DNA of 32,000 nucleotides. Origin: Clostridia bacterium. Lineage in GTDB: Bacteria; Bacillota; Clostridia; TANB77; RGIG9151. The notes under the pieces were generated by a model, which searched no databases, was not told where the DNA came from, and was given only the letters and a program-made list of their open reading frames with translations. The position numbers and the translations under genes were made by a program. How positions within the stretch are numbered: position 1 is the stretch's first letter; every line of letters begins with the position of its first letter. Of this stretch, positions 3,041 to 30,506 are shown in pieces. The DNA lies in NCBI GenBank assembly GCA_017934955.1, contig JAGBIO010000004.1:1-32000 (forward strand), written 5' to 3'.

Positions 3041-3049
3041 CTCTACGTT

Positions 3050-3637: not shown

Positions 3638-3690
3638 CGCAATCCTCCTAACGTTGCTTTTTACGTGCGTTATTTGTGCCTCTTTTTTCC

Positions 3691-6483: not shown

Positions 6484-6575
6484 TCTGCCTATTCTGTGGA
6501 CACAATGAATTGTGTCCCTACAACTTTTGTACTATCCCCGTACGGACAGCATTCATGCTGTCCGTGAATTGTGTC
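6484..6575. repeat. REP-like inverted doublet (6498-6517, 6544-6563) plus a fragment
   Basis: ctgcctattctgtGGACACAATGAATTGTGTCCctaca ... gtacGGACAGCATTCATGCTGTCC, followed by gtgaattgtgtc. Confidence 0.95.
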
Positions 6576-8750: not shown

Positions 8751-8853
8751 GTACGGACAGCATTTATGCTGTCCCTACACTAATTTAATTCTGAATAGTA
8801 ACGCGATTAGTTTACTATCCTACCCTTTTGTACGGACACAATTCATTGTGTCC
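8751..8853. repeat. REP-like cluster (8755-8774, 8834-8853) with a TIR-like module at 8779-8801
   Basis: gtacGGACAGCATTTATGCTGTCCctaca, then ctaatttaattctgaatagtaac, then gtacGGACACAATTCATTGTGTCC. Confidence 0.95.
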
Positions 8854-10301
8854 TAATCTTTATCCTTCAGCAATTTCTCAAATTGCAATTTTACCTGTTC
8901 CCGGTCGTCAAAGTGTATTGTTCCGGTATTCAAAATTTGATACGGTTCATGCCCTTTTCCTGCAATCACTACCACATCATCTTTTCGCGCAATTTCCAAT
9001 GCTTTATAAATCGCCTTTGCCCGATCCGGTTCCTTTAGATATTCTTTATCGAGGTTTTTCATCCCTTCTTCAATCTGTAAAATAATTTCCTCCGGATTTT
9101 CGCTTCTTGGATTATCCGAAGTTACAATCGCAATATCTGATAGTTCTGCCGCAATTTTTCCCATAATCGGACGCTTTGTTTTATCTCGATCTCCGCCACA
9201 ACCAAAAACGCAAATCACTCTTCCCTTCGCATATTCCCGTGTCGCCGTTAAGATGTTTTTCAAACTGTCCGGAGAATGCGCATAGTCTACCATTACGGTA
9301 AAATCCGCATTGATTTTTACCAACTCAGATCTTCCCGGCACGGTTAAGGTGTCAAATCCCCGCTGAATCTCCTCTCGAGAGCACCCTGCCTTGATTGCTA
9401 CTGCCATAGCAAGTAGCGCATTATATACCGAAAACTTCCCCGGAATTTTTACTCGAATAGAACCTAATTCTGAGGAAAAATCCACTGCATTTGCCGAAAT
9501 CACAAGATCTTTTGCCATAAGGTTTGCCTCTTTCTCAATCCCATAAGATTCTTTTACGCAAGTAATTTCCTGAAAAAGTCTCTTACCATATTCATCATCG
9601 GTATTTACTATCGCAAAATCACACATCGAAAACAACTTTTTCTTCGCTTGATAATAATTTTCAAAGTTCTTATGATAATCCATGTGGTCTTGACTCAAAT
9701 TGGAAAACGCCGCAATCGCAAAATGGCTGCCATATACTCGTTCTAAGTCCAACGCATGCGAAGAAACCTCCATCACAACCGCATCCACCTTCTCATCTGC
9801 CATTCGACGAAACATACGCTGTAACTCAATTGCTGCAGGAGTAGTATTTTCCGAAGTCTTTAAGATTTTATCTGCGATTCGGCATTCGATGGTTCCAATC
9901 AATCCAACCTTTTGACCCTTCGCTTCCAAAATCGATTTTATCATATAGGATGTTGTCGTTTTTCCTTTTGTTCCGGTAATTCCAATCAGCTGAAACTCTT
10001 TCGATGGATTTCGATAAAAATTACAAGCCATTTGCGCAATTGCCCGACGACCGCCATTTATCTGTACAAACCGAACTTCCGGTTTCATTACTGCTTCCTT
10101 CTGTGTAATTACAATCTTTGCCCCTTGTTTTATTGCCTCATCGATATATTGGTGACCGTCAAATTTCGTACCCTCCAAACAAACAAAAGCACACCCGTTT
10201 GCAATATCCCTCGAATCACTCGTTAGATAAGAAATCTCTTCTGTTAAGTCAGTATTTTTATTCACGATTTCAATTCCATTTAAAAGTTCATTCAGTTGCA
10301 T
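8853..10301 (-). CDS. murE: UDP-MurNAc-L-Ala-D-Glu:meso-diaminopimelate ligase
   Basis: Mur ligase P-loop GITGTKGKTTTS. The DNPR motif (TSDNPRSE) is typical of meso-DAP-adding MurE. AGGAGG RBS. The TAG stop overlaps the last base of REP 8834-8853. Confidence 0.93.
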   Translation of the reverse strand: MQLNELLNGIEIVNKNTDLTEEISYLTSDSRDIANGCAFVCLEGTKFDGHQYIDEAIKQGAKIVITQKEAVMKPEVRFVQINGGRRAIAQMACNFYRNPSKEFQLIGITGTKGKTTTSYMIKSILEAKGQKVGLIGTIECRIADKILKTSENTTPAAIELQRMFRRMADEKVDAVVMEVSSHALDLERVYGSHFAIAAFSNLSQDHMDYHKNFENYYQAKKKLFSMCDFAIVNTDDEYGKRLFQEITCVKESYGIEKEANLMAKDLVISANAVDFSSELGSIRVKIPGKFSVYNALLAMAVAIKAGCSREEIQRGFDTLTVPGRSELVKINADFTVMVDYAHSPDSLKNILTATREYAKGRVICVFGCGGDRDKTKRPIMGKIAAELSDIAIVTSDNPRSENPEEIILQIEEGMKNLDKEYLKEPDRAKAIYKALEIARKDDVVVIAGKGHEPYQILNTGTIHFDDREQVKLQFEKLLKDKD

Positions 10302-10320: not shown

Positions 10321-10464
10321 AATTACGGACACGATCTATGTCTCTTTTCCTCTGTACGGACAGCATTTATGCTGTCCTACATTCGTTCCTGCCTATTCTG
10401 TGGACAGCATGAATGCTGTCCCTACACACCTCTACGCCCCGTACGGACACAATTTATTGTGTCC
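10321..10464. repeat. REP-like cluster (degenerate copy 10327-10344; 10358-10377; 10402-10421; 10445-10464)
   Basis: A model inverted doublet: GTAC+palindrome (10354-10377), 24-nt spacer tacattcgttcctgcctattctgt, then palindrome+CTAC (10402-10425). Confidence 0.95.
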
Positions 10465-10466
10465 AT

Positions 10467-12632
10467 CTAATCAACCTCTTTAATCTTAAAGGTTACCTTC
10501 ACTAAGCTTCCCTTTTCTACAGCTGTGCCCGCTGCCGGAATCTGTTCATCGGCGACGCCCAAACCATCCGTATTAACATTCAGTCCCACATTCTTTAACA
10601 GTGCCGTTGCCTCTGAAATTGTCTTTCCGTAAACATTCGGCACTTCCACCATCGTCTTTTCAGCATTTTCTTCAGTATATAAAATAATACTCGAATTTTC
10701 AAGAACCTCAATGTTTGGTTTTGGAATCTGATCTTTTACAATGGAAGTATCCGAATAAGTGCCCTGAAAATTATATTTTAATCCCGCTTCTTTCAGTTTT
10801 GTTCTTGTCTCGGCAACCGTCAATCCTCTTACTTCCGGCACGATTACGCCGGTATTCATCTCATCCGCATTGTTTGGCTGAATCTGCAAATAGCGTAAAG
10901 TCTCTTCAATAATTTGTTTTGTTACAGGTGCTGCAATCGCACCACCGCCGTGGCTTGGTCCTTTTGGATCAAATAAAGCTACCAATACCGCAATTTCCGG
11001 ATTATTCGCCGGCGCAATTCCAACGAAGGAAGCCACATACCATGTAGATGCACCGATTCCCTGTTCTGCCGTTCCGGTCTTTCCCCCAACTTCATATCCT
11101 TTAATATACGCATTTCCACCGGTGCCCTCCGATACTACTTTCTCCATCATGCCTCTTACTTTTTCGGAAGTTTCCTTCGAAATAACCTGACGTACCACTT
11201 TCGGCTCATTGCTATATAACGTATTTCCATCGGAATCTCGCACTTCTTTCACAATTCTCGGAACCATTAATTTTCCATCGTTGGCTACTGCCGAAATTGC
11301 TGCAATTAAACTAATCGGCGTAATATTAAAACGCTGTCCGAATGCTGCTGTCGCAAGCTCGGTATCGTGAACATTCTGAATCGCATGGAATACCCCCGTC
11401 GCCTCGCCCGGCAGTTCAATACCGGTCTTTTCGGTAAAACCAAAGGCATCAATATACTTATAGAACGTTTCTTTTCCCATTTTTACACCAAGTTGTATAA
11501 ACGCAGGGTTACAGGAATTTCCCAATGCCTCGGTAAACGTCTGTACACCATGTGGACGATAATACCGCCAACACTTCATTGTTGCACCGCCAACCGTAAT
11601 TCGGCCAACACAGGTAAAATGATCGTCAAGCGTTGCTGTTCCGGAATCCAGTGCCGCACTTGTGGTAATTACCTTAAAAGTAGAACCCGGTTCATACGTA
11701 TCGGAAATCGCTTTATTTCGCCACGCGGACTCCCTTAACTTCTTCTTTTCCGTCGCATCCAAACTATCCCAAATTGCTGCCTGTTCTTCATCATACGGTC
11801 CGAATGCTTCATTCGGATCATAATCCGGATAAACCGCCATAGCAAGCACATCTCCGGTAGATGGTTTCATTACAATTGCCACGCCACCCTTTACGCAATC
11901 ATTATCGATTACCGCAGGCGCCAATGCCTTTTCGGTAAAATACTGAATGGAAGAATCAATGCTCAGCACCAAATCTCGACCGTTTTGCGGTGCATAATAC
12001 TCTTCGGAACTGAAAGGAATATCATTTCCCTTTCCGTCAGTCTCTGAAATCACACGCCCCGGAATTCCCGTCAAAACATCCTCATACGATTTTTCAATTC
12101 CGTAAAGTCCCTGATTATCCGAACCAACAAAGCCAAGAACATGAGCGGCAAGACGATTGTTCGGATAATATCTCTTATTGGTTTCATCAATCTTAACGCC
12201 CTTTGTCTTTGTCTCATTAATCCATTCTCTCAAAATATCGGTAACATCCTTCTCTACATTCTTCGCAATTGTCACAAGAGCCGCTTTTGAAGTTACTTTT
12301 TCATAAACCTCATTATACTCCAAACCGAGCAAATCCGCCAACTTCTGTGACAATTCCGCCGCATTCGCCACTTGACTCGGCGTTACGCTAATCGTCTCCA
12401 TCGACGCGCTAATTGCCAAGACCTTATTGTCCGACGAATAAATCGTTCCCCTGGAAGAATTAATTGTTCGATCTCTCGTCTGTTGATCATACGCCATTTT
12501 CTGTAATTTTTCAGACTCTACCGTCTGAATCCAAGCGACTCTTCCCGCCAAAACAACCAAAGCAACTAAAAAAAGGCCCATTAAAACCAACATTCTTTTT
12601 TTCGTTTTTATGCGCATTGTATCTTTTTTCAT
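10467..12632 (-). CDS. Class B penicillin-binding protein (FtsI/PBP2B/SpoVD type) with two C-terminal PASTA domains
   Basis: N-terminal TM anchor and transpeptidase motifs STFK, SCN and KTGTA. Two PASTA-like repeats (VPEVRGLTVAE..., VPNVYGKTISEA...). Sits in the dcw position after the ftsL-like gene. Confidence 0.92.
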   Translation of the reverse strand: MKKDTMRIKTKKRMLVLMGLFLVALVVLAGRVAWIQTVESEKLQKMAYDQQTRDRTINSSRGTIYSSDNKVLAISASMETISVTPSQVANAAELSQKLADLLGLEYNEVYEKVTSKAALVTIAKNVEKDVTDILREWINETKTKGVKIDETNKRYYPNNRLAAHVLGFVGSDNQGLYGIEKSYEDVLTGIPGRVISETDGKGNDIPFSSEEYYAPQNGRDLVLSIDSSIQYFTEKALAPAVIDNDCVKGGVAIVMKPSTGDVLAMAVYPDYDPNEAFGPYDEEQAAIWDSLDATEKKKLRESAWRNKAISDTYEPGSTFKVITTSAALDSGTATLDDHFTCVGRITVGGATMKCWRYYRPHGVQTFTEALGNSCNPAFIQLGVKMGKETFYKYIDAFGFTEKTGIELPGEATGVFHAIQNVHDTELATAAFGQRFNITPISLIAAISAVANDGKLMVPRIVKEVRDSDGNTLYSNEPKVVRQVISKETSEKVRGMMEKVVSEGTGGNAYIKGYEVGGKTGTAEQGIGASTWYVASFVGIAPANNPEIAVLVALFDPKGPSHGGGAIAAPVTKQIIEETLRYLQIQPNNADEMNTGVIVPEVRGLTVAETRTKLKEAGLKYNFQGTYSDTSIVKDQIPKPNIEVLENSSIILYTEENAEKTMVEVPNVYGKTISEATALLKNVGLNVNTDGLGVADEQIPAAGTAVEKGSLVKVTFKIKEVD

Positions 12633-12700: not shown

Positions 12701-12853
12701 CGGTCGGGACGTCGAGGACGCCGTCCCCTACAAATATATCATTTATGCTGCCCTGCAGCTTTTCTACCTCTCTCCTTCTGTACGGACACAATTTATTGTG
12801 TCCCATAGCTTTTTTACCTCTCTCTTTCTGTACGGACAGCATTCATGCTGTCC
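12701..12853. repeat. REP-like cluster (GC-rich variant 12707-12726; half copy 12741-12753; 12784-12803; 12834-12853) with a ~50-bp direct repeat
   Basis: cgggacgtcgaggacgccgtcccctaca. Also agcttttctacctctctccttctgtacggaca and agcttttttacctctctctttctgtacggaca. Confidence 0.93.
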
Positions 12854-13532: not shown

Positions 13533-13719
13533 TTTGTAATGAATTGTTACAATAGTGCATACATCCCGGACACAATGAATTGTGTCCCTACAGGATTGTG
13601 CCTTCTATAACCTTTTTCTCTTTTGTAGTTCATTGTTACGGTAGTGCATACATCCCGGACACAATGAATTGTGTCCCTACAGGATTGTGCTTTCTATAAC
13701 CTTTTTCTCTTTTGTGTTT
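13533..13719. repeat. Two tandem copies of an 89-bp unit, each with GGACACAATGAATTGTGTCC-CTACA
   Basis: Hairpins at 13568-13587 and 13657-13676. The flanks (attgttacNNtagtgcatacatccc and aggattgtgcYttctataacctttttctcttttgt) are repeated at an offset of 89. Confidence 0.93.
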
Positions 13720-15320: not shown

Positions 15321-15430
15321 TGTACGGACAGCATTCATGCTGTCCTGCTTTTCTGTCCTCACTGCGGACAGCATGAATGCTGTCCCTACAGCTTTTGTGC
15401 CTCCTCTATAAATTTAAGCGTGACAAGCAA
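15321..15430. repeat. REP-like inverted doublet (15326-15345, 15366-15385) plus a degenerate TIR-like tail
   Basis: tcattgtacGGACAGCATTCATGCTGTCC ... gcGGACAGCATGAATGCTGTCCctaca gcttttgtgcc tcctctataaatttaagcgtgac. Confidence 0.93.
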
Positions 15431-16024: not shown

Positions 16025-16057
16025 AAACGGCATACCGCTCGGTATGCCGTTTCTTTT
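16025..16057. terminator. Bidirectional rho-independent terminator between convergent murD and the 153-aa gene
   Basis: GGCATACC-gctc-GGTATGCC (16029-16048), flanked by aaaac on one side and gtttctttt on the other. Confidence 0.8.
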
Positions 16058-17312
16058 AACTCTTTATCCATTCTTTGAATCGTTCTCCACGTTCTTCAAA
16101 ATTCTTAAAATAGCCGTAGCTGGCTGCTGCCGGCGACAATAGACAAATTTTATCTTTCTGCGTAACTTTCTTCGCCACGTTTACAGCCTCTTCCAAATCC
16201 TCAACCAAGTAAACTCCGGAACAGTTTAAGCCTTTTGCAATTCGTTTTCCGGTCTCGTATGCCAAAATGATATTCCGTACTCTTCCTTCATTCAAAAAAG
16301 CAATTAAGGAATCATAATGAACGCCGCGATCCATACCGCCCAAAATCAAAGTATCCACTTCTTTTAGGCTTTCTACCGCAGCCATCGTTGCTTCCGGAAC
16401 GGTAGAGATGGAATCGTTATAGTAGCGAATTCCTTCATAAGTTCCTACAAACTCCAAACGATGCGGCAAGCCTTTAAAATCGCCTACTGCTTTTTCCCAT
16501 ACCTCTTTAGGAATTCCCAATAATTTCGCTACCGCTACTGCCGCAGAAATGTTGTTTTGATTATGTTTTCCCAACAAGTGACTCGGTATAGCAATCGGAA
16601 ACGGAAAGGCTATCTTCTTGCCTTTTGCATAGCTTTCCACATACTTTACCGTTAATTCATTCTCGGCATTATATACCACAAAATCTTCCGCAGATTGATG
16701 TCGAAAAATATTTACTTTGGAAAGCTGATATTCTTCATAGGATTCATAATGGTCCAAATGTTCCTCAAACAAGTTCAATAAAACCCCAATATGCGGTGAT
16801 ACCACTATTTTTTCCAATTGATGGGAAGACATCTCGCAGACCAAAACCGTCTCATCTGTTATTTCTTCCAAACACTCGAATATCGGGATTCCGATATTTC
16901 CGACAAGTCTTGTATTCACCTTCGCTTCCTGTAAAATGGCATAAATTAAGGAAGATGTCGTACTTTTCCCTTTTGTGCCGGTAATTCCGATCATATTTTT
17001 TCGATAAAAATTCAAAACCAACTCTGTCTGAGAAGTAACTTTTTCAAAATCGACTTTTCCTTTTAACTCCTTAAAAGAAATTCCGGGACTTTTTATCACG
17101 ACATCAAAATCATTAAGTCCTTCACAATAATCCGTGCCGTAATATACCTTTTCCGGTACTTCTGCCTGTCTTTCATCTGCAATTGCCAATTCTTTATAAT
17201 TCACATACTTTTTCACGAAATGATAAGTCGCTTTTCCTTCACGCCCGAAGCCTAAAATTACAATAGACTTTCCGTCAAGCGCCTTCTTTATTTCCTGTAT
17301 CAGTTTCGTCAT
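16056..17312 (-). CDS. murD: UDP-N-acetylmuramoyl-L-alanine:glutamate ligase (MurD family; possibly an L-Glu-adding MurD2 type)
   Basis: Mur ligase P-loop GITGTKGKSTTSS with MurD-like length and domain order. ATG 17312 (MTKLIQEIKK) has GGAGG upstream, and the track start lies in REP 17349-17368. Located outside the usual mraY-murD-ftsW position. Confidence 0.88.
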   Translation of the reverse strand: MTKLIQEIKKALDGKSIVILGFGREGKATYHFVKKYVNYKELAIADERQAEVPEKVYYGTDYCEGLNDFDVVIKSPGISFKELKGKVDFEKVTSQTELVLNFYRKNMIGITGTKGKSTTSSLIYAILQEAKVNTRLVGNIGIPIFECLEEITDETVLVCEMSSHQLEKIVVSPHIGVLLNLFEEHLDHYESYEEYQLSKVNIFRHQSAEDFVVYNAENELTVKYVESYAKGKKIAFPFPIAIPSHLLGKHNQNNISAAVAVAKLLGIPKEVWEKAVGDFKGLPHRLEFVGTYEGIRYYNDSISTVPEATMAAVESLKEVDTLILGGMDRGVHYDSLIAFLNEGRVRNIILAYETGKRIAKGLNCSGVYLVEDLEEAVNVAKKVTQKDKICLLSPAAASYGYFKNFEERGERFKEWIKS

Positions 17313-17344
17313 TTTAATTCCTCCATGCTTACGATTCTGCCAAT

Positions 17345-17555
17345 CTGCGGACACAAATTATTGTGTCCTAATTCTACCGTCTGCCTATTCTGTGGACAGC
17401 ATAAATGCTGTCCCTACAATGTTTGTGCTATCATTGTAGGGACACAATTTATTGTGTCCTAATTCTATCGTCTGCCTATTCTGTGGACACAATAAATTGT
17501 GTCCCTACAGTGTTTGTGCCTTTTCTATAAATTTGAGTCTGACCTGTAACAATGA
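17345..17555. repeat. Two tandem ~91-bp REP-doublet units (hairpins 17349-17368, 17394-17413, 17440-17459, 17485-17504) plus a TIR-like tail
   Basis: The units at 17349-17439 and 17440-17530 align base for base, except that the second hairpin core is GCAT/ATGC in one and CAAT/ATTG in the other. Confidence 0.95.
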
Positions 17556-17565
17556 TTGTGTTCAT

Positions 17566-18816
17566 TTATTTTTGCCATAATTCAGGATATTTTTCAATCA
17601 AAATTGGTAAATTTTCTTGATATTTTTCGGCAATCATTCGAATTGCTTCCTTCACTTCCGCCCTTGTCCCGACACACTCGAACGGTTTTGTTTTATCGAT
17701 TCCCGCAAGTTCCCGATAATACTTTTCCAACTCCAAATCATTTAATAAATTTCTTCCGAAAATCGTTGTCATTTCTTCTTCCGACAAAAAAGGTGCCAAA
17801 ATAATATACACAAATAAGCACTTTGAACACTTCCCACACCATTCGTTTTTTCCGCCGACGCTTCCGCGATTACAACTTCGAAAAATTTTATGATACTGCT
17901 TATACTCCGCAAACTGTCTCGCTATATCGATTTCCCGCATACCGCGTAGCAAGCTGAAATATTTCATAAAAGGATTAACGTATCGCTCGGTATATTCCAC
18001 AAAATCCAATTCAAATTCCAACGACTTGGAATATTGGTGGTTTGCTCCTGTTTCCTCATCGGTACTCTCATTAGCACTGCTTTCATTGGACAAAACAATA
18101 TACTGTTTTCCTGCTAATAATGCACAAAACATCCCTAAAAATGCCAAAGACGCTGAAAAAGGAGTATGTCCGTTTAAATATCCTTCTTGATTTAACTGCA
18201 ATAACAGAGGATCGATTTTCCGCATTACAATCACGGAATCTTCCGCGTTATATCCCGCAACCGTTACCGTATCCAACGTCGCCCCACGCGGATTTACTAT
18301 AAAGCAAGTATTATGCGCTTTTTCCTTCTTCAATAGCTCCAAGGTAACCGCCGAATCTTTTCCGCCTCCTACCGGAATCAAATTTCCTTCTACGTTTCCG
18401 ATTTTCGATTTCGAATAAATCGTGTCTGTCGCATTTTCAAAGACAACAAAATCCTCATAAGAAATCTCGATATGATTCAAAAAACGAAATTCGCCCAATC
18501 CGTTATAAAAAAGTTTCTTCCAAAAATCCATTTGTTCTTCTCGCAACGCCCCTGCTTTTAATATAACCTTCTTAGGACAAGCCGCTTTATAATAACTGAT
18601 TAATTCACAAAGTCCCAAATGGAACAAAAATACATCTTTATCTTCTAAATTCTCCGGTCGAAAAAAATCTCTCTTTAAGATACTTAACCGATGCACAAAA
18701 TGAAACTCTCCTAAAGAATAGTAATAATTTATATCATAAGAATCGTCTGACTCGGAACATGTAAATTTATCGTAGGAAACAGCGTCAAACTTCTCGCGCA
18801 ATTCAGAAAATGTCAT
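17566..18816 (-). CDS. PP-loop-type ATP pyrophosphatase-like protein with C-terminal Cys cluster; candidate MurL-like epimerase
   Basis: Has GGGKDS (a variant of the SGGxDS PP-loop) and WCGKCSKC plus an upstream CNRG Cys, as in QueC-like PP-loop enzymes. 416 aa, immediately upstream of murD in transcription order. The function is inferred from context only. Confidence 0.8.
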   Translation of the reverse strand: MTFSELREKFDAVSYDKFTCSESDDSYDINYYYSLGEFHFVHRLSILKRDFFRPENLEDKDVFLFHLGLCELISYYKAACPKKVILKAGALREEQMDFWKKLFYNGLGEFRFLNHIEISYEDFVVFENATDTIYSKSKIGNVEGNLIPVGGGKDSAVTLELLKKEKAHNTCFIVNPRGATLDTVTVAGYNAEDSVIVMRKIDPLLLQLNQEGYLNGHTPFSASLAFLGMFCALLAGKQYIVLSNESSANESTDEETGANHQYSKSLEFELDFVEYTERYVNPFMKYFSLLRGMREIDIARQFAEYKQYHKIFRSCNRGSVGGKNEWCGKCSKCLFVYIILAPFLSEEEMTTIFGRNLLNDLELEKYYRELAGIDKTKPFECVGTRAEVKEAIRMIAEKYQENLPILIEKYPELWQK

Positions 18817-20097: not shown

Positions 20098-22731
20098 TTA
20101 ATTTGCTCGATCATTTAAATATGTATTATATAGTTCCTGCACAAATTCTTTATTATGACGATAACCCGTAAGGATTGCTCCTGACATAGATTCATTCTGA
20201 GCTACCTGCTTCTTAACAATATATGCAGAAGTTTTGGTGACATTCAGCGGATCTCGTACTGTAGGATCTGTACTATAAACTCCCACTTTTACACCCTGAT
20301 TTACTAAATTCATTACCTCTGGCTCGTTATACGCTGCATCCATAAAAGTTACCTCAAAATTAATCTGTTTCGTATCTCCACTTGAAGTGGTAATTTCTGC
20401 TCCGTGCAAATTTTTCGTCATATAAACTGCAGGAACACCACCGCCACTAAAAGCATCTATATAAATATCCGAACCAATCTTACCACTGGCAATTTGTTCT
20501 TTTAAATATTGGGTAATGGAATCGGTAGCACCTTCCCCCCATCCGTTTAGCCCGTAAGTCTTCTTATTACTAGCAATAGAAACGCAGATTACATTCATAT
20601 TAGCTAAAGCTGGTACATCTTCTATAAATGCCATTGCTTTAGAAAGATCACGTTTTTCTTCATCGCCAGGAAACATAAGAACTGTTTTGGCATTCGGTCC
20701 AATGTAGTGTAGAGCAATATTTGCACCGCCATAATTGAAAGTTTCAAATACTAATTTTTCAAATTCCGACGAAACACCTTGACAATTTGTGCATACCAGA
20801 GCACCACCGGCATCTTCATACATTTTTTTTGTAACAAGTGTTTCGTTGCAAAGAACGCAAAGACTTTCATGAGCCAAGCAGAATAGCGGTGAATGTACAA
20901 TAGATTCACTATCTTCCGTTTGAGTTGTGTTTTGACTTCTCCTAAAAGTTCTGCAATCCACTGCCCTGCACTTATGTTCTGCACAGTAATACGAATATCT
21001 TCCTATATCCTTGGCTCCCGTATCCCTTACATCAGGGGTTGTTGCTGTTACCATAGGTATCGTACTCACTCCTACTATTGCCTCTTCGCACATACTGCAA
21101 GTATGCGGATAACAATATAAATTTGCGCCTTCGCCCTTTTCTCTGCATTTCAGTCCTTCTCTTGTAGGACCACTATTTGTGGGATCCACTTCCCAATTCC
21201 ACACAAAACGACAAGCGTGTTCTGCGCAATATTTTGAGAAATATACTAAAATATCACCGTCATCATCTCCGCAAGCTACCTTGCCACCACATATTTCGCA
21301 TTTAGAACAGCCTTGGCATAAGTAAAAGTTTCCTTCGCTGAATCGATATTGATTCTTATTCGCTTGATCCGGCGAAATTTTGGAATTTATCACATCAAAT
21401 CGTTCTGCATCTATCTCATGTTGTTTAAAAATGTCGTTATATTCATCTGTTTTGATTCCCATTAATTTTCCTTTTTCTTTTTCCGCAAATACTGTATTTT
21501 CCAAATCTCCCAAGAATTCATTTTGTACATAATACTCTTTTGGTTCATAATTTTCTGCCACAACATCTATTTTTCCGTAATTTTCCCGAATTTCCGATAC
21601 AGCATCATCTAATTTTTCCCATGCCTCTTGTCTTGCTGTTATTGTCGCATTGCTATCTTCAATCTCTCTTCCGTACCGATCGGTTGTCGTTATCCGGATA
21701 CGATTTACAATATCATTAAAAATATCTTCTATAAACTTTTTTTTGTTATGTTCTGTTAATACATATAAGGCTTCGTTTTCTTTTTCCTCTGTATCTTGTG
21801 CATAGTACCCTGCCAAATTAAATGTATAAGTGAAATTTACGTTATATCCTATTGTCAATACGACTTTTTTTCCTTCGATTTCTAAATTCATTTGGTCTTG
21901 TGCTTCATGCGGATCTTCTCCCCAACATTTTTCGACTACCTTAAATTCTGCACTTCTTGCATCGTCATAAGCCGGAAATTCCCAATCCGCATATTGATTG
22001 ATATCCTCAGCTTCTGCATAAGTTTCCTCAACAAAATTTTCCGGTACTTTGGGGGCCGTACTTTCTGTCGAATTCGAATCTCCACCGGAAAAGTTTCCAG
22101 CAGAACTTCCACCGGAAGAGTTTCCAGCAGAACTTCCACCGGAAGAGTTTCCAGCAGAACTTCCACCGAAAGTTACCATCGAATCTTGTCCGTTCGCATT
22201 TTCTGATTCTCCGGTATATAAAAGTTTCCATTCATCATTTTCTCCAACACCTAAAATCAGATTTCCGCTTTTTTCATCTAAATTTTGCGTATTTAAAACA
22301 TAATATTCGCCGCTTTGTACTTCGGAATCAGTAATCACTACTTTTCTGTATAATGCTCTTAATTGATTAGTAATCGAAATCAGTTCATTTGCCTTTTTTT
22401 CAGCAGCTTCTTCTGACAGTTCCTCCACTTGCTTTTCAATTATTTTCATAACAGAGTCATCATCAAAATATTCTCCTACGATTTCACTGCTTGAGGCTTC
22501 CACAAACGGGGATAAATCAAATTGCACGCCGGTTTCTCCGGAACGGAAATTTATCGTTTTCTGTTCTTCTATCGTTAAAAGATTCTCTGCATTCACGTTA
22601 TTGATTTCATCTGCCGAATACCATTCGGCAGATACTTCCCCAATCGGATTTAACAATACTGTGCCAACGGCATAAGTAAAATTCGTTAAACAAAAACATG
22701 CCACTAAAAAATAGACAAATATTTTTTTCAT
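20098..22731 (-). CDS. Orphan 877-aa secreted protein: signal peptide, Gly/Ser repeat, Cys/His-rich module, C-terminal alpha/beta-hydrolase-like region
   Basis: Signal peptide MKKIFVYFLVACFCLTNFTYA, followed by (GGSSAGNSS)x3. Four [YF]C-x2-H-x1-3-C motifs plus several CxxC. The C-terminus has AFSGGG (a nucleophile-elbow-like motif), then FMDAAY and GYRHN. Terminator hairpin downstream. Confidence 0.85.
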   Translation of the reverse strand: MKKIFVYFLVACFCLTNFTYAVGTVLLNPIGEVSAEWYSADEINNVNAENLLTIEEQKTINFRSGETGVQFDLSPFVEASSSEIVGEYFDDDSVMKIIEKQVEELSEEAAEKKANELISITNQLRALYRKVVITDSEVQSGEYYVLNTQNLDEKSGNLILGVGENDEWKLLYTGESENANGQDSMVTFGGSSAGNSSGGSSAGNSSGGSSAGNFSGGDSNSTESTAPKVPENFVEETYAEAEDINQYADWEFPAYDDARSAEFKVVEKCWGEDPHEAQDQMNLEIEGKKVVLTIGYNVNFTYTFNLAGYYAQDTEEKENEALYVLTEHNKKKFIEDIFNDIVNRIRITTTDRYGREIEDSNATITARQEAWEKLDDAVSEIRENYGKIDVVAENYEPKEYYVQNEFLGDLENTVFAEKEKGKLMGIKTDEYNDIFKQHEIDAERFDVINSKISPDQANKNQYRFSEGNFYLCQGCSKCEICGGKVACGDDDGDILVYFSKYCAEHACRFVWNWEVDPTNSGPTREGLKCREKGEGANLYCYPHTCSMCEEAIVGVSTIPMVTATTPDVRDTGAKDIGRYSYYCAEHKCRAVDCRTFRRSQNTTQTEDSESIVHSPLFCLAHESLCVLCNETLVTKKMYEDAGGALVCTNCQGVSSEFEKLVFETFNYGGANIALHYIGPNAKTVLMFPGDEEKRDLSKAMAFIEDVPALANMNVICVSIASNKKTYGLNGWGEGATDSITQYLKEQIASGKIGSDIYIDAFSGGGVPAVYMTKNLHGAEITTSSGDTKQINFEVTFMDAAYNEPEVMNLVNQGVKVGVYSTDPTVRDPLNVTKTSAYIVKKQVAQNESMSGAILTGYRHNKEFVQELYNTYLNDRAN
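22082..22172. repeat. In-frame 27-bp tandem repeat (about 3.3 copies) inside the 877-aa gene
   Basis: ccaccggaaRagtttccagcagaactt at 22082, 22109 and 22136, plus a partial copy. Encodes GGSSAGNSS repeats on the minus strand. Confidence 0.9.
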
Positions 22732-22831: not shown

Positions 22832-23001
22832 GTTCAGACTATATTTCTCTACAATGTTTGCACAATCATTGTAGGGACACAATTTATGGTGTCCGGAAAA
22901 TAGGCGGAGTCCACAGAAAAGGCAGAAAAGCAGGACAGCATGAATGCTGTCCCTACAATAATGTCGCAATCATTGCAGGAGACGGCGTCCTCGACGTCCC
23001 G
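22832..23001. repeat. Composite REP-like cluster (22875-22894, 22933-22952, GC-rich variant in reverse orientation ~22975-23001)
   Basis: gttcagactatat..., then caatcattGTAGGGACACAATTTATGGTGTCC, then GGACAGCATGAATGCTGTCCctaca, then gcaggagacggcgtcctcgacgtcccg. Confidence 0.9.
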
Positions 23002-24540: not shown

Positions 24541-24719
24541 GGACAGCATGAATGCTGTCCCTACATTGGTTGTGTTGATTTATCTATCCAGGTGGACAGC
24601 ATGAATGCTGTCCCTACAATGCTTGTGTTGATTTATCTATCCAAGTGGACAGCATGAATGCTGTCCCTACATTGGTTGTATTTATTTCGCCATCCGTACG
24701 GACAGCATTTATGCTGTCC
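24541..24719. repeat. Three tandem 53-bp units (hairpins 24541-24560, 24594-24613, 24647-24666) plus an inverted copy at 24700-24719
   Basis: GGACAGCATGAATGCTGTCCctacaWtgSttgtgttgatttatctatccaRgt repeated three times, then gtacGGACAGCATTTATGCTGTCC. Confidence 0.95.
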
Positions 24720-24722
24720 ATC

Positions 24723-25376
24723 TTATTTTGCAAAATTATGCTTTCCGATCCTCTTTACTATCGGTCGGCTCCAAATCCACTTACTGGTACTCGTCGCCGG
24801 ATTATAAAAATAAATACAACCGCCTGATGGATCCCAGCCGTTTAAAGCATCTTGCGCCGCTTTCACGGCGGTTGTTGTCGGTTCCATATTGATTTGCCCA
24901 TCATACACCGAATCAAACGCACCGTTCTGGTAAATCACGCCGGCAATCGTATTCGGAAACTCGCTATGTCTCACTCGATTTAAAATAACCGCACCCACGG
25001 CAACCTGTCCTTCATACGGCTCTCCTCTCGCCTCTCCGCTAATCGCACGCGCCAATAAATTCAAATTATTGTTGGTAGAATTCGAACCGGTCGGTAAACC
25101 CAAAGCCGCCAATGTCTGTTTTCCTGCAATTCCGTCTACCGTTAGCCCATTTTTCGCTTGAAATCTTCTCACTGCTTGATAGGTTTGATTTCCATAAACT
25201 CCATCAACAGCGCCGTTATAATACCCCCATCTTTTCAAACGCGTCTGAATCTGTATCACTTCATCTCCCCGCGATCCCCAATAAGAAACAACCGCTGTAC
25301 TTCTTCCATAGGTTTTCACTACACCGAAGCAAAGATAAAAAAGCATAATAAAAATTGCAAATACTCTCCTTTTCAT
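24723..25376 (-). CDS. sleB: Spore cortex-lytic enzyme, SleB/CwlJ family, with peptidoglycan-binding domain
   Basis: Signal peptide and a PG_binding_1-like repeat (YNGAVDGVYGNQTYQAVRRFQAKNGLTVDGIAGKQT). SleB hydrolase domain (LLARAISGEARGEPYEGQVAVGAVILNRV...YFYNP). Confidence 0.88.
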   Translation of the reverse strand: MKRRVFAIFIMLFYLCFGVVKTYGRSTAVVSYWGSRGDEVIQIQTRLKRWGYYNGAVDGVYGNQTYQAVRRFQAKNGLTVDGIAGKQTLAALGLPTGSNSTNNNLNLLARAISGEARGEPYEGQVAVGAVILNRVRHSEFPNTIAGVIYQNGAFDSVYDGQINMEPTTTAVKAAQDALNGWDPSGGCIYFYNPATSTSKWIWSRPIVKRIGKHNFAK

Positions 25377-25498: not shown

Positions 25499-26582
25499 TT
25501 GCCGTTAAAGCTACCGGAACAGAATAGCTTAAGTGTTCGCACATTCTCTTATTTTCTTTTGCCAACAACATTTCCATAATAGTAGATTGGCAATTGAAGT
25601 TTGCGGAATATGTCGGTACAAAACTCATGAAGTAATAGCTGAATGGTACTACGAAATAAGTATCAAACATATTTTGAATATCCATTACATAGATGGATAA
25701 GAATAATTGATCATCTTCCATTGCGCTATCCAAATCTTCAATTTGCGCTGCTTTTTCATTGAAATAATCCACATACTTTTTGCGATTGATTCCGAGTGCG
25801 TTAAATACTTCATCGTAATATTCTTCCAAATTGGTCGTCTTTCCGGAAAGCATTTTAGATAATCTTTCTTCTGAGAAGAAATCCAATTTTACCGAAGATT
25901 TTGTTTCTTCTCCGTTTCTTTCCAATAAAGTTGCAAGCATTTCTGCTTTTGAAGCTAACGCTGATTTTAATTCGTAAGATGCCATACTTACAGCTGCTGT
26001 CTGTAAAACCGCAAATTTATCTGCTTTTGTTAATTTTAAGAATTCTTTTCCTGTTTCGGAAATTTTAATAGAATCATAACGGCTTGTTTTCTTTGTATGA
26101 CGTTCGGTCAAACCGATAGAATTACATAAGTTTGTAATGTAATCCAAATATGCTGCATCTTCAAAGAACATTTCATCTGTTAACGTTGCTTTGGTTTGTC
26201 CTAATAAAGTATTTGTCTTAGAACAAGGAATTTTCTTTGACAACGTTTTTAATAACTTCGTGCAATCGTCAACAATCGGATGATTCTTTTTGGAAATTTC
26301 ATATAAATTGTATTTTGAAGTAAATGTGTTTTGCAATCTGTTTAAGTTAATATGTAATTTCGGAACAACCAAAGATTCTGCATTAATATCTTCATTTAAA
26401 ACAGAAAACGGATTTTTGTTTTTATACGCTTCGGTTGTACCGGAATATAACCATTTTCTAAATGGAATATTAATATTTTTCAACACATATTCTTTTTGCT
26501 GTTTTACAATCTCCAATTCCTGCATATTCTTTAACAAGCTCTTTTCAAATTCCGAAAAAATATTAGCCGTAATTTTAGACAT
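25476..26582 (-). CDS. Hypothetical 368-aa cytoplasmic protein (no family recognised)
   Basis: Long ORF with ordinary composition. ATG 26582 (MSKITANIF) is preceded by AAGGGGGAAG. The last 7 codons lie in one arm of a 33-bp inverted repeat. Confidence 0.75.
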   Translation of the reverse strand: MSKITANIFSEFEKSLLKNMQELEIVKQQKEYVLKNINIPFRKWLYSGTTEAYKNKNPFSVLNEDINAESLVVPKLHINLNRLQNTFTSKYNLYEISKKNHPIVDDCTKLLKTLSKKIPCSKTNTLLGQTKATLTDEMFFEDAAYLDYITNLCNSIGLTERHTKKTSRYDSIKISETGKEFLKLTKADKFAVLQTAAVSMASYELKSALASKAEMLATLLERNGEETKSSVKLDFFSEERLSKMLSGKTTNLEEYYDEVFNALGINRKKYVDYFNEKAAQIEDLDSAMEDDQLFLSIYVMDIQNMFDTYFVVPFSYYFMSFVPTYSANFNCQSTIMEMLLAKENKRMCEHLSYSVPVALTATSIANVQ

Positions 26583-26758
26583 CTTTTTCTTCCCCCTTAT
26601 AAACATCTGTCACTATTCCTAATATCGAATCTAATTTCAAAAAACTTAATAGTTTTTTGAATATTTTTTTTATTTTTGCAAACAATTAAAATGTTAAGAA
26701 ACTCTACATAGTTACTATATCCTACCAAAATCTTATTGTCACTTTTTTAGGAGGAAAA

Positions 26759-28018
26759 ATGGAAAATTTAATCATTAATCACTCAAAACCACTTTACGGC
26801 GAAGTTACGGTCAGCGGCTCAAAGAACGCCGTACTGCCGATTTTAGCTGCTACCGTTTTAACAAGCGGTGAAAATATAATTCATGATGTTCCGGAATTGG
26901 AAGATGTAAAAATTATGGAAGAAATTCTTTCGACGGTTGGTTCCAAAATTTCTTCAGATTCCCCAAATTCTTTAAAAGTAGAAACAACCGCAATCAAAAA
27001 TTTTGAAATTCCTTATGAACTTGTTACAAAAATGCGTGCTTCTATTCTTTTATTGGGACCCTTACTTGCTCGTTGCGGAAAAGCTTCTGTCTCCTTTCCG
27101 GGAGGTTGCGCTATCGGCAGTCGTCCGATTGATTTGCATTTAAAAGGATTATCTGCCATGGGAGCAGACATCGAACAGTCGAACGGACTAATTACCGCAA
27201 GCGCCAAAAAGCTAATCGGGAAAAAAATTTACTTAGACTTTCCAAGTGTCGGAGCTACCGAAAACTTAATAATGGCAGCTGTCTTAGCGGAAGGAGAAAC
27301 CATTTTGGAGAACGCCGCAATTGAACCGGAAATTGTGGATTTATCTACTTATCTTTCCTCTTGCGGTGCCCAAATTCAAGGGGCCGGAACCGATACCGTA
27401 AAAATTACCGGAGTTCCCGAATTAAAAGGAAGTGAACATACCGTTATTTCCGATCGTATCGAAGCAGGTACTTTTATGATTGCTTCTGCAATTACCGGCG
27501 GAAATGTACTGATAAAAAATGTTATTCCTGCACATCTAAAACCGATTACCGCGAAGCTAAAAGAAGCCAATATCGAAGTATCGGAAGAACTAAATGCAAT
27601 TCGCGTAAAAGGCGGAAATCTTATCAAAAATGTCGACATCAAAACATTGCCGTATCCCGGTTTTCCCACTGATATGCAAGCTCAATTTGCTACCTTAATG
27701 ACAACTTCTGCCGGAAACAGCATTATCGTAGAAACCATTTTTGAAAACCGCTTTTTATATGTTCCCGAGCTCATTCGTCTCGGCGCAAATATTAAAATTG
27801 ACGGCAGAGCCGCCGTTATCTCGGGAAATGCTTCCTTAAACGGTGCTAAAGTAAAAGCCACCGATTTAAGAGCCGGTGCCGCCTTAATTTTAGCCGGTTT
27901 AGTCGCCGACGGCGTCACTACTGTCACCGACCTTTACCATATCGACCGTGGCTATGAAAAATTAGATCAAAAATTATCCGCCTTAGGCGCCAATATTTCA
28001 CGAATAGAAACAGAATAA
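26759..28018 (+). CDS. murA: UDP-N-acetylglucosamine 1-carboxyvinyltransferase
   Basis: Canonical MurA (VSGSKNAVLPILAA, active-site loop GGCAIGSRPIDLHL, YPGFPTDMQAQ). AGGAGG RBS. Confidence 0.95.
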   Translation: MENLIINHSKPLYGEVTVSGSKNAVLPILAATVLTSGENIIHDVPELEDVKIMEEILSTVGSKISSDSPNSLKVETTAIKNFEIPYELVTKMRASILLLGPLLARCGKASVSFPGGCAIGSRPIDLHLKGLSAMGADIEQSNGLITASAKKLIGKKIYLDFPSVGATENLIMAAVLAEGETILENAAIEPEIVDLSTYLSSCGAQIQGAGTDTVKITGVPELKGSEHTVISDRIEAGTFMIASAITGGNVLIKNVIPAHLKPITAKLKEANIEVSEELNAIRVKGGNLIKNVDIKTLPYPGFPTDMQAQFATLMTTSAGNSIIVETIFENRFLYVPELIRLGANIKIDGRAAVISGNASLNGAKVKATDLRAGAALILAGLVADGVTTVTDLYHIDRGYEKLDQKLSALGANISRIETE

Positions 28019-28094
28019 TACGAATAAAAATTTATTATCTATTCTTTTTTCACTCTTCTTTATTCTTTAATGTTTTTATATAGGAGGCAATCAT

Positions 28095-29039
28095 ATGAAA
28101 AAAATGTTCTTCTTCACCCTTACTTTACTTCTCATTTACTACATCTTTACCCGGTCTCCCGCAAAAGAAAATCTTATTGCACATGTCAACAATGACAACA
28201 TCATCTATCTTACGCGTGCAAAAACACAAGATATCGTAGAACTCAATTTTGAAGATTATATTGCGGGAGTTGTTTACGCGGAAATGCCGGCAAGTTTTGA
28301 AGTTGAGGCGTTAAAAGCACAAGCCGTTGCGGCTCGTACATATACCATAAAAAAATTAGCTTCGGGAACACATATTTGCGATGATTCCACACATTGTCAA
28401 GCATGGAAGGAAGCGGATGAAAGCGAAGAATATAAAAAAGTAGCCCAAGCCGTCAAAAGCACCGATTCCGAAATTCTTACCTACTTAGGAGAAGCCATCA
28501 GTGCTTTCTTTCATTCAGCCAGCGGTGGGAAAACCGAAAACGTAAAAGACGTTTGGGGCGGAGAAGAAATTCCTTATCTTCTCTCGGTAGACAGTCCGAA
28601 CGAAAATACATTAATGTCTACCTTTTTTAGTGAACAAGAGATTTCTTATGCGGATTTTGCCAACAAAATCAATCATTATACCGGAAAGAAAACAGTTTCT
28701 TATGATTTATCTCAAACGAAAAATATCGCAAAATTCAAAAAAGAAATCAAAATTGTCAGCCGTACCGAAGGGGATCACGTAGAGTCCATAAACGTCTCCG
28801 GCACAACCTTCTCCGGTACGGAATTTCGCAATATTTTTGACTTGCGTTCTACGAATTTCACAATTACTTTAAAAGACAAAACAATTTTGATTCAAGTAAA
28901 AGGCTACGGACATGGCGTCGGCATGAGTCAATGGGGTGCCCAGGTAATGGCAAAGGCAGGAAAAGATTATCGGGAAATTCTCTATCATTATTATCCCAAT
29001 ACGCTATTGGAAAAACAAGCCTATCAAAAGAAAGCCTAA
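28095..29039 (+). CDS. spoIID: Stage II sporulation protein D (lytic transglycosylase)
   Basis: Signal/anchor sequence and SpoIID motifs (ALKAQAVAARTY, FHSASGGKTE, GHGVGMSQWGA). Shows the conserved murA-spoIID adjacency. AGGAGG RBS. Confidence 0.9.
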   Translation: MKKMFFFTLTLLLIYYIFTRSPAKENLIAHVNNDNIIYLTRAKTQDIVELNFEDYIAGVVYAEMPASFEVEALKAQAVAARTYTIKKLASGTHICDDSTHCQAWKEADESEEYKKVAQAVKSTDSEILTYLGEAISAFFHSASGGKTENVKDVWGGEEIPYLLSVDSPNENTLMSTFFSEQEISYADFANKINHYTGKKTVSYDLSQTKNIAKFKKEIKIVSRTEGDHVESINVSGTTFSGTEFRNIFDLRSTNFTITLKDKTILIQVKGYGHGVGMSQWGAQVMAKAGKDYREILYHYYPNTLLEKQAYQKKA

Positions 29040-29143
29040 ATACATAAGGGTCGTAAAAACACCTCAATTAAATTATATTTGTTGTATAAAAAAATTTAAT
29101 ATGGCTATACTCCCAATATACATAAAAAATGGGAGGAATTACT

Positions 29144-29776
29144 ATGAAAAAATTTTATATTTTAACTTTTGTTGGGATTGCTTTATTGCTTTTCGCCGTT
29201 ATGATCGGTGAAAGTGTGATTTCGAAAAATCAACAGACAAAACCGAATTTGCAGGAAATTCATCAAGTAGAACAGCAGCATCAAGTACAAACGGAATTAG
29301 AAATAACACAGGCAAATCAAACGAAAGTAACCGAAATCAAACCGATTCCGGAAGAAACGGAAAAGAAAAAAGAATTGCAATTTATGAAACCGGTTGAAGG
29401 CGAAATCGAAATGAACTACTCACCCGAAACATTAATTTATTCAAAAACACTCGGTGAATGGAAAGTTCACAACGGAATTGACATCAAAGCCGAAAGAGGA
29501 ACTGCCGTAAAAGCCGCTGAAGCCGGTAGAATCACAGATATCTCCGAAACTACCGATAAAGGGATTGAAATTACGATTTCTCACGCCGACGGCTACCAAA
29601 CCGTTTACTCGAACTTATCCACAAAGTCTATGGCAGCCCCAAATCAAGAGGTGGAAAAAGGACAAGTCATCAGTGGCGTCGGGAACACCGCCGCTTTTGA
29701 ATATTACGAGCCGGATCATTTACATTTCGAAGTCTATAAAGACGGAAAATTAGTTGATCCAAACAGTATTTTTTAG
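29144..29776 (+). CDS. Membrane-anchored M23/LytM peptidase, likely SpoIIQ-like
   Basis: TM anchor, Gln/Glu-rich linker and a LytM domain with HNGIDI (HxxxD) and HLHFEV (HxH). Position after spoIID matches clostridial spoIIQ. ATG 29144 (MKKFYIL) has GGGAGG upstream; the track starts at 29129. Confidence 0.8.
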   Translation: MKKFYILTFVGIALLLFAVMIGESVISKNQQTKPNLQEIHQVEQQHQVQTELEITQANQTKVTEIKPIPEETEKKKELQFMKPVEGEIEMNYSPETLIYSKTLGEWKVHNGIDIKAERGTAVKAAEAGRITDISETTDKGIEITISHADGYQTVYSNLSTKSMAAPNQEVEKGQVISGVGNTAAFEYYEPDHLHFEVYKDGKLVDPNSIF

Positions 29777-29785
29777 AAAAAAAGA

Positions 29786-29920
29786 GTTACAATTCAGACT
29801 ATAATCTTTCTATAATAATGGTACAATCATTGTAGGGACAGCATTTATGCTGTCCTGCTTTCTGCCTTTTCTGTGGACAGCATGAATGCTTTTCCTATAA
29901 ATTTAATTCTGAATTATAAC
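29786..29920. mobile_element. 135-bp MITE-like composite: terminal inverted repeats enclosing a REP doublet (29836-29855 and a degenerate copy 29875-29895)
   Basis: The left end is gttacaattcagactataa. The right end ttataaatttaattctgaattataac reverse-complements to gttataattcagaattaaattta. The interior is caatcattGTAGGGACAGCATTTATGCTGTCCtgctttctgccttttctgtGGACAGCATGAATGCTtttcc. Non-coding, between convergent genes. Confidence 0.6.
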
Positions 29921-29927
29921 CTTTTTC

Positions 29928-30506
29928 TTATTTCACTATGTATGCTTTCGTTCCGTCGCCGTTTCCAACATTAACGGCGTTTCCTTCGTCGGTATCGATG
30001 TGCATTGCTAATGCAAACTTATCGCTGACTCTTACCACTACATCTCCGAAGATAAGGCTTCTGTCTTGACTTTCTACTTTTACATTTACGTTTTCTTTAT
30101 CTTGTACACCAAATTTTTCAGCATCTTCAGGTGTCATATGAATATGACGTTTTGCGATAATTAAACCTTTATCTAAGGTTATTGAACCTGTTTCTGATTT
30201 TATTTCTACGCCCGGTGTTCCCTCGATATCGCCCGATTCGCGAATTGCGCCCATAATTCCGAGAGCAAAGCAATCGGATTTTGCAAACTCAATCTGCGAT
30301 GCTTTTCTTTCCGGTCCCAATACAGCCACATTTTCAAATGTTTTCTTCGGTCCGATAACCGTTACTCTCTCTTCTGCCAAGAATTGACCCGGTTGCGACA
30401 AATCTTTTTTCGGCGTCAACTTATGACCCTTTCCAAATAACATTTCTACTGCTTCTTGTGTCAAATGTACATGACGTGCCGAAACTTCCACTTTAATATT
30501 TTCCAT
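29928..30506 (-). CDS. pduL: Phosphate propanoyl/acetyltransferase PduL
   Basis: Two PduL repeats with SARHVHL and AKRHIHM motifs, at a typical ~190 aa. AAGGGGGA RBS. Confidence 0.88.
   Translation of the reverse strand: MENIKVEVSARHVHLTQEAVEMLFGKGHKLTPKKDLSQPGQFLAEERVTVIGPKKTFENVAVLGPERKASQIEFAKSDCFALGIMGAIRESGDIEGTPGVEIKSETGSITLDKGLIIAKRHIHMTPEDAEKFGVQDKENVNVKVESQDRSLIFGDVVVRVSDKFALAMHIDTDEGNAVNVGNGDGTKAYIVK

Follow-up and report, generated by a model that had tools for sequence, protein, structure and literature searches.

The 253-nt gap considered here lies in a cluster of genes for cell division and the cell wall, from an uncultured, spore-forming member of the Clostridia. The window (the whole stretch of DNA analysed, 32,000 nt) includes genes for SpoIID, MurA, GPR, MurL, Mur ligases, MraZ, RsmH, PBP, MraY, FtsW, and PolA; almost all genes are on the - strand, the GC content is about 0.39, and the GC skew is strongly negative. 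Upstream of the gap is a MurL-type epimerase gene (17566-18816, - strand), whose stop codon stands, on the sense strand, 57 nt before a REP array. Downstream is a Mur ligase gene (16056-17312, - strand), and the gap runs from the MurL stop (17566) to the ligase ATG at 17312. A GTG at 17354 was considered as the ligase start, but it was not adopted, as it overlaps a REP, while ATG 17312 has a GGAGG ribosome-binding site.

The first-pass annotation described in this gap two adjacent units of about 91 bp, whose flanks would be identical and whose hairpins would differ by pair-preserving changes at two stem positions. As to the hairpins, the sequence reads as claimed: the A-type core GGACAGCATAAATGCTGTCC (17394-17413) and the B-type core GGACACAATAAATTGTGTCC (17485-17504) are both 20-nt perfect palindromes, and their sole differences are at stem pairs 6 (G:C to C:G) and 7 (C:G to A:T). 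The units indeed align without gaps (TRF, 17349-17519: period of 91 bp, 1.9 copies, 91% matches, zero indels). Their flanks are nearly, though not fully, identical: beyond the core, the first 80 aligned nucleotides differ at three single positions, and the last ~10 nt diverge. Independent assemblies have an identical sequence at this site, and the repeats are therefore no artefact of assembly.

The gap is occupied by REP copies that alternate in orientation, separated by two recurring types of spacer. The leftmost is a decayed B-type copy (GGACACAAATTATTGTGTCC, 17349-17368, + strand), altered next to the loop and with CTGC where the tag would be. It is followed by a tail-to-tail spacer module (TAATTCTACCGTCTGCCTATTCTGT, 17369-17393; ACAGAATAGGCAGAC..TAGAATTA in the sense-strand reading), then by an A-type copy with its tag (GGACAGCATAAATGCTGTCC-CTAC, 17394-17417, - strand), which reads as GTAG-hairpin on the sense strand. 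The head-to-head spacer CTACAATG-N10-CATTGTAG (17414-17439) is an 8-bp inverted repeat that includes both tags, and it leads into a tagged B-type copy (GTAG-GGACACAATTTATTGTGTCC, 17436-17459, + strand). A second copy of the tail-to-tail module (TAATTCTATCGTCTGCCTATTCTGT, 17460-17484) and a tagged B-type copy (GGACACAATAAATTGTGTCC-CTAC, 17485-17508, - strand) complete the array, whose order on the sense strand is thus GTAG-B, spacer, B-CTAC, spacer, GTAG-A, spacer, decayed B. The tail-to-tail module can be written TAATTCTA..GTCTGCCTATTCTGT, and its CTGCCTATTCTGT part precedes five REPs in the window. REP and CTACAAT flank together also make sigma-70-like sites (TGGACA-N16-TACAAT, 10/12 consensus positions) at 17393-17420 and 17484-17511 on the + strand and at 17460-17433 on the - strand, mostly antisense to the genes.

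Alternating REPs with recurring spacers are a trait of BIMEs, and here the order is F-R-F-R, with the tail-to-tail spacer present twice and the head-to-head spacer once; the same modules recur elsewhere in the window. A regular alternation of subtypes, of the Y/Z kind, is absent: AB, BA, AA, and BB neighbours are all seen, and 6/11 neighbour pairs are mixed. The first-pass annotation had proposed to check whether A and B go with distinct flanking modules, and no association was found with spacer module, neighbour, or orientation (Fisher p = 1.0 for the latter).

Compared with shuffled sequences, the 253-nt gap folds strongly, both as RNA (-76.8 kcal/mol, z = -7.8) and as DNA (z = -8.5). The B-B pair at 17436-17508 folds as one 25-bp REPIN-like hairpin, while the A copy and the decayed B copy fold alone; core type therefore decides whether neighbours pair. 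Such a long REPIN-style hairpin is not formed by A-B pairs, which make up most pairs in this genome and in others. A terminator scan of 16800-18000 gave no terminator-like site, the hairpins being followed by CTAC or GTAC and not by T runs, and a scan of the whole window against Rfam 15 gave no family match. An intrinsic terminator was rejected, as there is no T/U run after the hairpins and no site in the scan. A CRISPR array was also rejected, since the repeats are mutually inverted and the spacers are themselves repeated.

With mismatches allowed, the window contains 36 such hairpins (18 of type A, with a GCAT core, 15 of type B, with a CAAT core, and three of a type C), about one per kb, and every copy is intergenic. 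The GGAC-N12-GTCC frame occurs 34 times in the window, versus 0.10 expected (0/100 shuffles). These elements display the traits of the GTAG-tagged REP superfamily as defined by Di Nocera et al. 2013: a palindromic stem-loop within the 20-40 nt range (20 nt, with a stem of 8-9 bp), an unpaired tag, mostly GTAG, at one end of the hairpin, and a multicopy, dispersed, extragenic distribution (36 in 32 kb, all in gene gaps).

The copies are found along the whole window. At its left end, a C-type copy (GGACGTCGAGGACGCCGTCC-CCTAC, 225-249, - strand) precedes clusters in three gene gaps at 2264-3836, with A copies at 2264, 2351, and 3695, B copies at 3741 and 3817, and three B copies in a 60-bp tandem (2894, 2954, and 3014). 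Next come a head-to-head doublet (6498-6563; B at 6498, A at 6544) and a pair at 8755-8853, made of an A copy tagged on both sides (8755) and a B copy (8834) that adjoins the TAG stop of the gene at 8853-10301. Three REPs each are located at 10358-10464 (A at 10358 and 10402, B at 10445) and 12707-12853 (C at 12707, B at 12784, A at 12834); two B-type copies lie within an 89-bp tandem repeat (13568-13680, - strand), and two A copies form a tail-to-tail doublet (15326-15389). On the other side of the MurL gene, there are three REPs at 22875-22999 (a B copy with one arm substitution at 22875, A at 22933, C at 22980), four A-type copies at 24541-24719 (three in a 53-bp tandem and one inverted), and, between convergent genes, an A-type copy with a decayed partner (29836-29894). 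In five genes, a REP starts 0-4 nt past the stop codon (3836, 8853, 10464-10469, 24719-24725, and 2370-2374), and in PolA (3836) and MurE (8853) the hairpin opens with the G of the TAG stop itself. Stop-adjacent REPs of this kind could have an effect on translation termination or on mRNA 3' ends.

Adding 16 kb of flanking contig to the window (48 kb in total) gave 38 A/B copies, whose orientation was read from the loop. Apart from pairs 6-7, essentially all of them keep the stem; their loop always begins with T, followed by T or C. The tag reads G-T-A-(G/C), with GTAG in 23/38 oriented copies and GTAC in 13/38. Unpaired single-arm variants were looked for throughout these 48 kb: 35/38 A/B copies have perfect stems, zero stems join an A arm to a B arm, and the copy at 22875 alone has a single-arm change at the variable pairs. 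The flanks of the 38 copies match their own consensus at just 30-60%, so that identical flanks are a property of the two 91-bp units only, and conservation is confined to the 24 nt of tag and hairpin instead of extending over the 91-bp unit.

The two orientations are equally frequent (19 and 19 per strand, n = 38), but the tags are split by strand: GTAG is found in 18/19 copies on the - strand, versus 13 GTAC and 5 GTAG on the + strand (Fisher p = 7e-6). The + strand ratio of GTAC is 12/15 in the window alone and 13/18 with the left extension. Examples are GTAC at 2347-2350, 3691-3694, and 6540-6543, and CTAC at 17414-17417 and 17505-17508. The - strand is the sense strand and, judging by the GC skew, likely the lagging-strand template. 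At 26001-30000, the skew goes from about -0.25 to about -0.05 where the genes turn to the + strand; it is therefore part coding-strand and part replication-strand effect, which makes the replication-strand assignment less firm.

Type C has the form GTAGG-GGACGGCG-TCCT-CGACGTCC, with the inner sequence GTCG.../GGCG... and a conserved G.A mismatch. With a different loop (TCCT), a one-base displacement of the tag (GTAGG), and this mismatch, it constitutes a separate family. The first reading, in which one frame hosts three inner sequences, is thus right in that three exist (A, B, and C), but the third does not belong with the other two. C-type sites are located at 225-249, 12707-12731, and 22975-22999, in the frame GTAGG-GGACG-NNN-TCCT-NNN-CGTCC. 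An Oscillospiraceae MAG (L024:1652-1937) has the C-type frame with other cores, and those are paired.

A relative with the same gene cluster provides a point of comparison. This sequence, L120 (JGI 3300031555, Ga0318466_10041942), is syntenic with window positions 274-25556 at 74-92% nucleotide identity, with the same GC content, and has zero REP hairpins and much shorter gene gaps. All REP clusters of the window are in segments that do not align to L120, and MurL stop and ligase start are 15 nt apart there versus 253 nt here. The REP-free state of this relative argues, by alignment, that the arrays are lineage-specific additions to an otherwise conserved operon; the opposite scenario, in which L120 lost all of its REPs, is less parsimonious. 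L120 is also without the 877-aa gene of the window (20098-22731). This ORF contains a 27-bp in-frame tandem repeat of 3.4 copies (22081-22172), and its product is 877 aa versus 868 aa between assemblies, with gene coordinates shifted by 27 nt. A difference in the copy number of this repeat between strains is, therefore, likely.

The same frame is also widely distributed in other genomes. A genome collection with one genome per species was scanned with a pattern that let pairs 6-7 pair or not; the matches listed comprise at least 103 loci in at least nine phyla, with a GC content from 0.31 to 0.75. They include Chloroflexota, Bacteroidota (Rhodothermales, Bacteroidales, Ignavibacteria), Clostridia, Cyanobacteria, Latescibacterota, Thermotogota, WOR-3, and others. 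With the relaxed frame GTAG-GGAC-N12-GTCC, at least 196 copies are found in 699 kb of the listed loci. Two dense local arrays from other gut or rumen MAGs are among them, in a Prevotella MAG (L013; 10 copies in 7.5 kb, with the core ATAAT/ACAAT) and in a Muribaculaceae MAG (L085; 6 copies in 0.4 kb). A metagenome scan with a spacer-plus-frame pattern, in a collection without the source organism, gave four unrelated, unpaired chance or coding matches, and a literature search for the literal sequence gave irrelevant primer matches only.

Among the matches listed, 131/132 pattern-matching copies are perfectly paired, with at least 17 distinct perfect cores; of 64 unconstrained neighbour copies, 38 are perfect and 22 have one mismatch. 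The covariation check that had been proposed was run across 70 distinct sequences from about 40 genomes among these matches, many of the copies coming from the same few MAGs. It gave a score of 0.448 versus 0.126 in shuffles (0/500), and at most 0.139 when the partner position was slid. In this set, 97.1% of cells are paired versus 79.8% in shuffles, and 103 cells are changed on both sides versus 31. The idea of a structural constraint on the stem, together with the tag and outer bases, is thereby borne out, as it is by the 35/38 perfect stems of the source genome. As the outer GGAC/GTCC was fixed by the search pattern, its conservation across genomes is not evidence.

The variation sits in pairs 5-7: pair 6 shows all four Watson-Crick types and U-G, and pairs 5 and 7 show three or four. 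The further suggestion that the inner sequence is not under selection does not hold as such, since pairs 6-7 (and 5, as A/G) vary, but pairs 8-9 (AT) are conserved and the first loop T is invariant. Across the genomes listed, pairs 8-9 are mostly A:T and T:A. Among the same matches, internal mismatches read on the tag-bearing strand are T.G wobbles in seven cases (three distinct sequences) versus two of C.A/A.C, an excess that points to folding of that strand. Head-to-head doublets have two different cores in 32/35 cases, from about 12 genomes among the matches listed; the presence of two cores per genome is, therefore, normal for the superfamily.

The first-pass annotation had also guessed at a structure-specific protein, possibly a RAYT, and this is supported in relatives by RAYT genes that have REPs of the same frame. 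An approximate E. coli RayT sequence, used as a BLAST seed, gave a weak match (E = 0.13) that led to L047. The gene found there (L047:6416-7003, - strand) matches NCBIfam REP_Tyr_transpos (NF047646; 68.5 bits, E 5.7e-19), has a weak match to Pfam Y1_Tnp and a local alignment to the TnpA-REP structure 4ER8, and displays the HUH (NHLH), WQ, and YIDSNP motifs. It is flanked by REPs of the same frame at 6287, 6393, and 7098. It has 976 homologues, some of which are named RayT by JGI. GTAG-hairpins in frame inside RAYT genes are found in P0002, P0004, P0016, P0036, and P0008. In P0036 (L110), an in-frame GTAG-GGAACGGATTTATCCGTTCC is translated as PVGNGFIRS, and another hairpin, different from the first and with CTAC after it, as GRMNPAPT. 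L122 and L123 each have one RAYT with two different cores beside or inside the gene, so that REPs of the same frame flank or lie within the RAYT gene in L047, L122, L123, and L110. At L110:10127-10302 and L123:4018-4041, and in P0002, P0004, and P0016, the in-frame REP doublets lie around the HUH motif, with two cores per gene.

The homologues have PNH(L/I/V)H, WQ, and YI(D/E)xNP motifs and in-frame REPs, which are traits of subclass 2.4 of Quentin et al. 2018 (PMC6006769), equivalent to Group 4 of Bertels et al. 2017 (PMC5581495). This subclass has in-frame and 'double-foot' REPs, NH[IFV]H/WQ/YIxNNP motifs, and a variable insert between HUH and Tyr, and it occurs in Cyanobacteria, Bacteroidetes, and various other phyla (PMC6006769). 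The linked RAYTs would thus belong to subclass 2.4/Group 4, a placement made by motifs, in-frame REPs, and REP similarity, not by phylogeny. Searches directed at the source genome itself gave no RAYT by profile in its 48 kb, none tied to it among the 120 listed of the 976 homologues, no peptide encoded by A/B REPs in those 120, and no accession from the source MAG in homologue cluster look-ups. P0036, P0005, and P0008 were rejected as its RAYT because they belong to other organisms. Among the loci listed, all-against-all clustering of ORFs near REPs gave no protein family recurring across genomes, and a profile search of the 103 loci gave a RAYT in one (L047).

Taken together, the gap is probably one segment of a BIME/REPIN-like array of GTAG-REPs spread by a RAYT, in which A and B variants have been replaced rather than mutated. 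The unit is the 24 nt formed by the tag GTA(G/C), the 8-9 bp stem GGACA-NN-A(T), and the loop T-T/C. A RAYT (TnpA-REP; HUH-Y1, subclass 2.4 = Group 4), presumably present and active in the source genome, would read this unit as a hairpin of single-stranded DNA. It would recognise the tag and the loop as well as a stem without interruptions, and cut and rejoin beside the hairpin, which would allow copies to spread into gene gaps. Two stem variants coexist in the genome, A (G:C, C:G) and B (C:G, A:T), and a single RAYT probably serves both. Pairs 6-7, the sole A/B difference, are the pairs that are free to covary across the superfamily. In inverted neighbours, unlike cores block mutual pairing, so that each folds alone, while like cores form one long hairpin.

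The pattern of conservation matches the cleavage requirements described by Corneloup et al. 2021 (PMC8266576). In REPs that are perfect palindromes, cleavage requires the tag, and the first base of the loop is indispensable; complement swaps in the stem are tolerated with modest effect, and a mid-stem mismatch abolishes cleavage (PMC8266576). GTAC also abolishes cleavage in the S. maltophilia assay (PMC8266576), and up to a third of the copies may, therefore, be non-substrates. The swap between the two 91-bp units had been read as compensatory mutation in place; it is instead an exact switch between two discrete subfamily consensuses. As divergence elsewhere is about 4%, four substitutions that give exactly the other consensus are not independent mutations, and the hairpin was replaced whole. 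The replacement could reflect separate insertions, or else conversion or recombination among the copies.

Other explanations have to be weighed against this one. The hairpins may be kept mainly for RNA roles in the cell-wall operon, as a 3' stabiliser, a processing site, or a translation brake, with stem pairing then selected in the RNA rather than by a DNA enzyme. E. coli REPs are reported to stabilise upstream mRNA, and those within about 15 nt of a stop codon to stall ribosomes; here, the copies lie between co-directional genes, the RNA of the gap folds far better than shuffles, and five genes have a REP 0-4 nt past the stop, two of them sharing the G of TAG. An RNA hairpin, however, requires neither a GTAG tag nor a strand-specific loop; the two orientations are equally frequent (19 and 19), and the same element is linked to RAYT genes in many phyla. 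There is no U-tract, terminator-like site, or Rfam family, and L120 has the same cluster without any REP. A main role in RNA is thus unlikely, and it can be seen as a secondary, added function rather than a true alternative. Perfect stems would also arise, without selection, if intra-strand template switching copied changes from arm to arm, perfect palindromes being the classic substrate of such correction. The stems are indeed perfect even where tag or flanks have decayed (17349, 2264). Persisting wobble mismatches imply that this correction is not automatic, and template switching leaves unexplained the exact jump between consensus cores common to about 18 and 15 copies, the constancy of the loop base and of the tag, and the occurrence of the same few cores at 31-75% GC, which makes it improbable. 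Finally, 20-nt perfect dyads with fixed outer half-sites GGAC/GTCC resemble duplex targets of a dimeric protein, for instance a regulator or part of a restriction-modification system. The operator reading was rejected on anatomy: the centre covaries instead of being fixed, and loop and tag are asymmetric. With about 36 sites in 32 kb, tandem arrays, and none in L120, a dimer site is extremely improbable.

The first-pass annotation had left room for separate cognate enzymes. In that case, A and B would be independent REP families with their own RAYT paralogues, and pairs 6-7 would act as a specificity code. As a rule, a given tnpA-REP goes with one REP family of its own, and a genome can have several (PMC6006769); moreover, A and B are discrete, without intermediates, and C, whose loop and tag spacing differ, clearly forms a family apart. 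Nevertheless, A and B share tag, loop, spacers, and orientation classes, and all four neighbour combinations occur. Single RAYTs elsewhere have two cores (L122, L123, L110, P0002, P0004), most of the listed head-to-head doublets are mixed, one enzyme serves the Y/Z subtypes of E. coli (PMC6006769), and stem complement swaps had modest effects in vitro (PMC8266576). The independence of A and B from tag, loop, spacer, and neighbour, together with single RAYTs that have two cores, therefore makes separate enzymes quite unlikely, and a single RAYT acting on both variants more probable.

A bolder extension, offered as a tentative and rather doubtful reading, is that of a recent massive invasion by Group-4-type REPs (about one per kb, with an empty sister lineage), with A/B shuffling and strand-split tags. 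If so, free A/B shuffling between composite units would imply RAYT-driven hairpin exchange at the hairpin foot, and unlike cores would be favoured, as they prevent long unstable palindromes between inverted copies. GTAG copies, on the inferred lagging-strand template, would then be active, and GTAC copies, on the other strand, would be passive partners. The REP class itself is already known, and the picture of what REPs are is unchanged. Nearly all work on REPs and RAYTs concerns Proteobacteria, and the RAYT/REP literature cited here includes no Firmicutes family of GTAG REPs and describes Group 4 with low-copy flanking repeats only. The window offers an extreme REP amplification in a gut/rumen-type Clostridia MAG, and one tag-and-hairpin frame, with few covarying cores, across at least nine phyla. 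With L120, it constitutes a natural before/after pair for REP invasion of an essential operon, and A and B, differing at two stem pairs, are a clean test case for what RAYTs read.

Among known systems, the REPINs of Pseudomonas fluorescens (Bertels and Rainey 2011, PMC3116915) similarly have an inverted REP pair with a short spacer as their unit, to which the long B-B hairpin at 17436-17508 corresponds. Unlike REPINs (PMC3116915), most doublets have mixed cores (32/35 head-to-head doublets among the matches listed) and fold as separate small hairpins. E. coli BIMEs (Y, Z1, Z2; REPtron) share alternating REPs, two recurring spacer types, several stem subtypes per family, the GTAG tag, and copies between cistrons, with one TnpA-REP in E. 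coli. Their REPs (RAYT Group 2), however, are longer, imperfect palindromes with an essential bulge, and their Y and Z subtypes follow a regular alternation, in contrast to the random assortment of A and B. The Group 3 REPs of Stenotrophomonas maltophilia and Marinomonas (PMC8266576) have a perfect stem of about 8 bp with a small loop, as here, and likewise a critical first loop base, a need for GTAG, and a stem read mainly as structure; they differ in RAYT group, stem sequence, and host phylum, and GTAC, inactive there, is common here.

The closest resemblance is to subclass 2.4/Group 4 (PMC6006769, PMC5581495). That group is described mainly from Cyanobacteria and Bacteroidetes, its flanking 16-mers number about 14 per replicon (PMC5581495) versus about one copy per kb here, and its REPs are called 'long', versus stems of 8-9 bp in this genome, where the profile search of 48 kb gave no RAYT. 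The likeness lies in a GT[AG]G foot placed directly at the base of a G/C-rich stem, in 'double-foot' copies tagged on both sides (8755 in the window and many in other loci), in REPs that lie in frame within the homologues' RAYT gene alongside the NHxH, WQ, and YIxxNP motifs, and in an occurrence scattered over Cyanobacteria, Bacteroidota, Chloroflexota, and other phyla.
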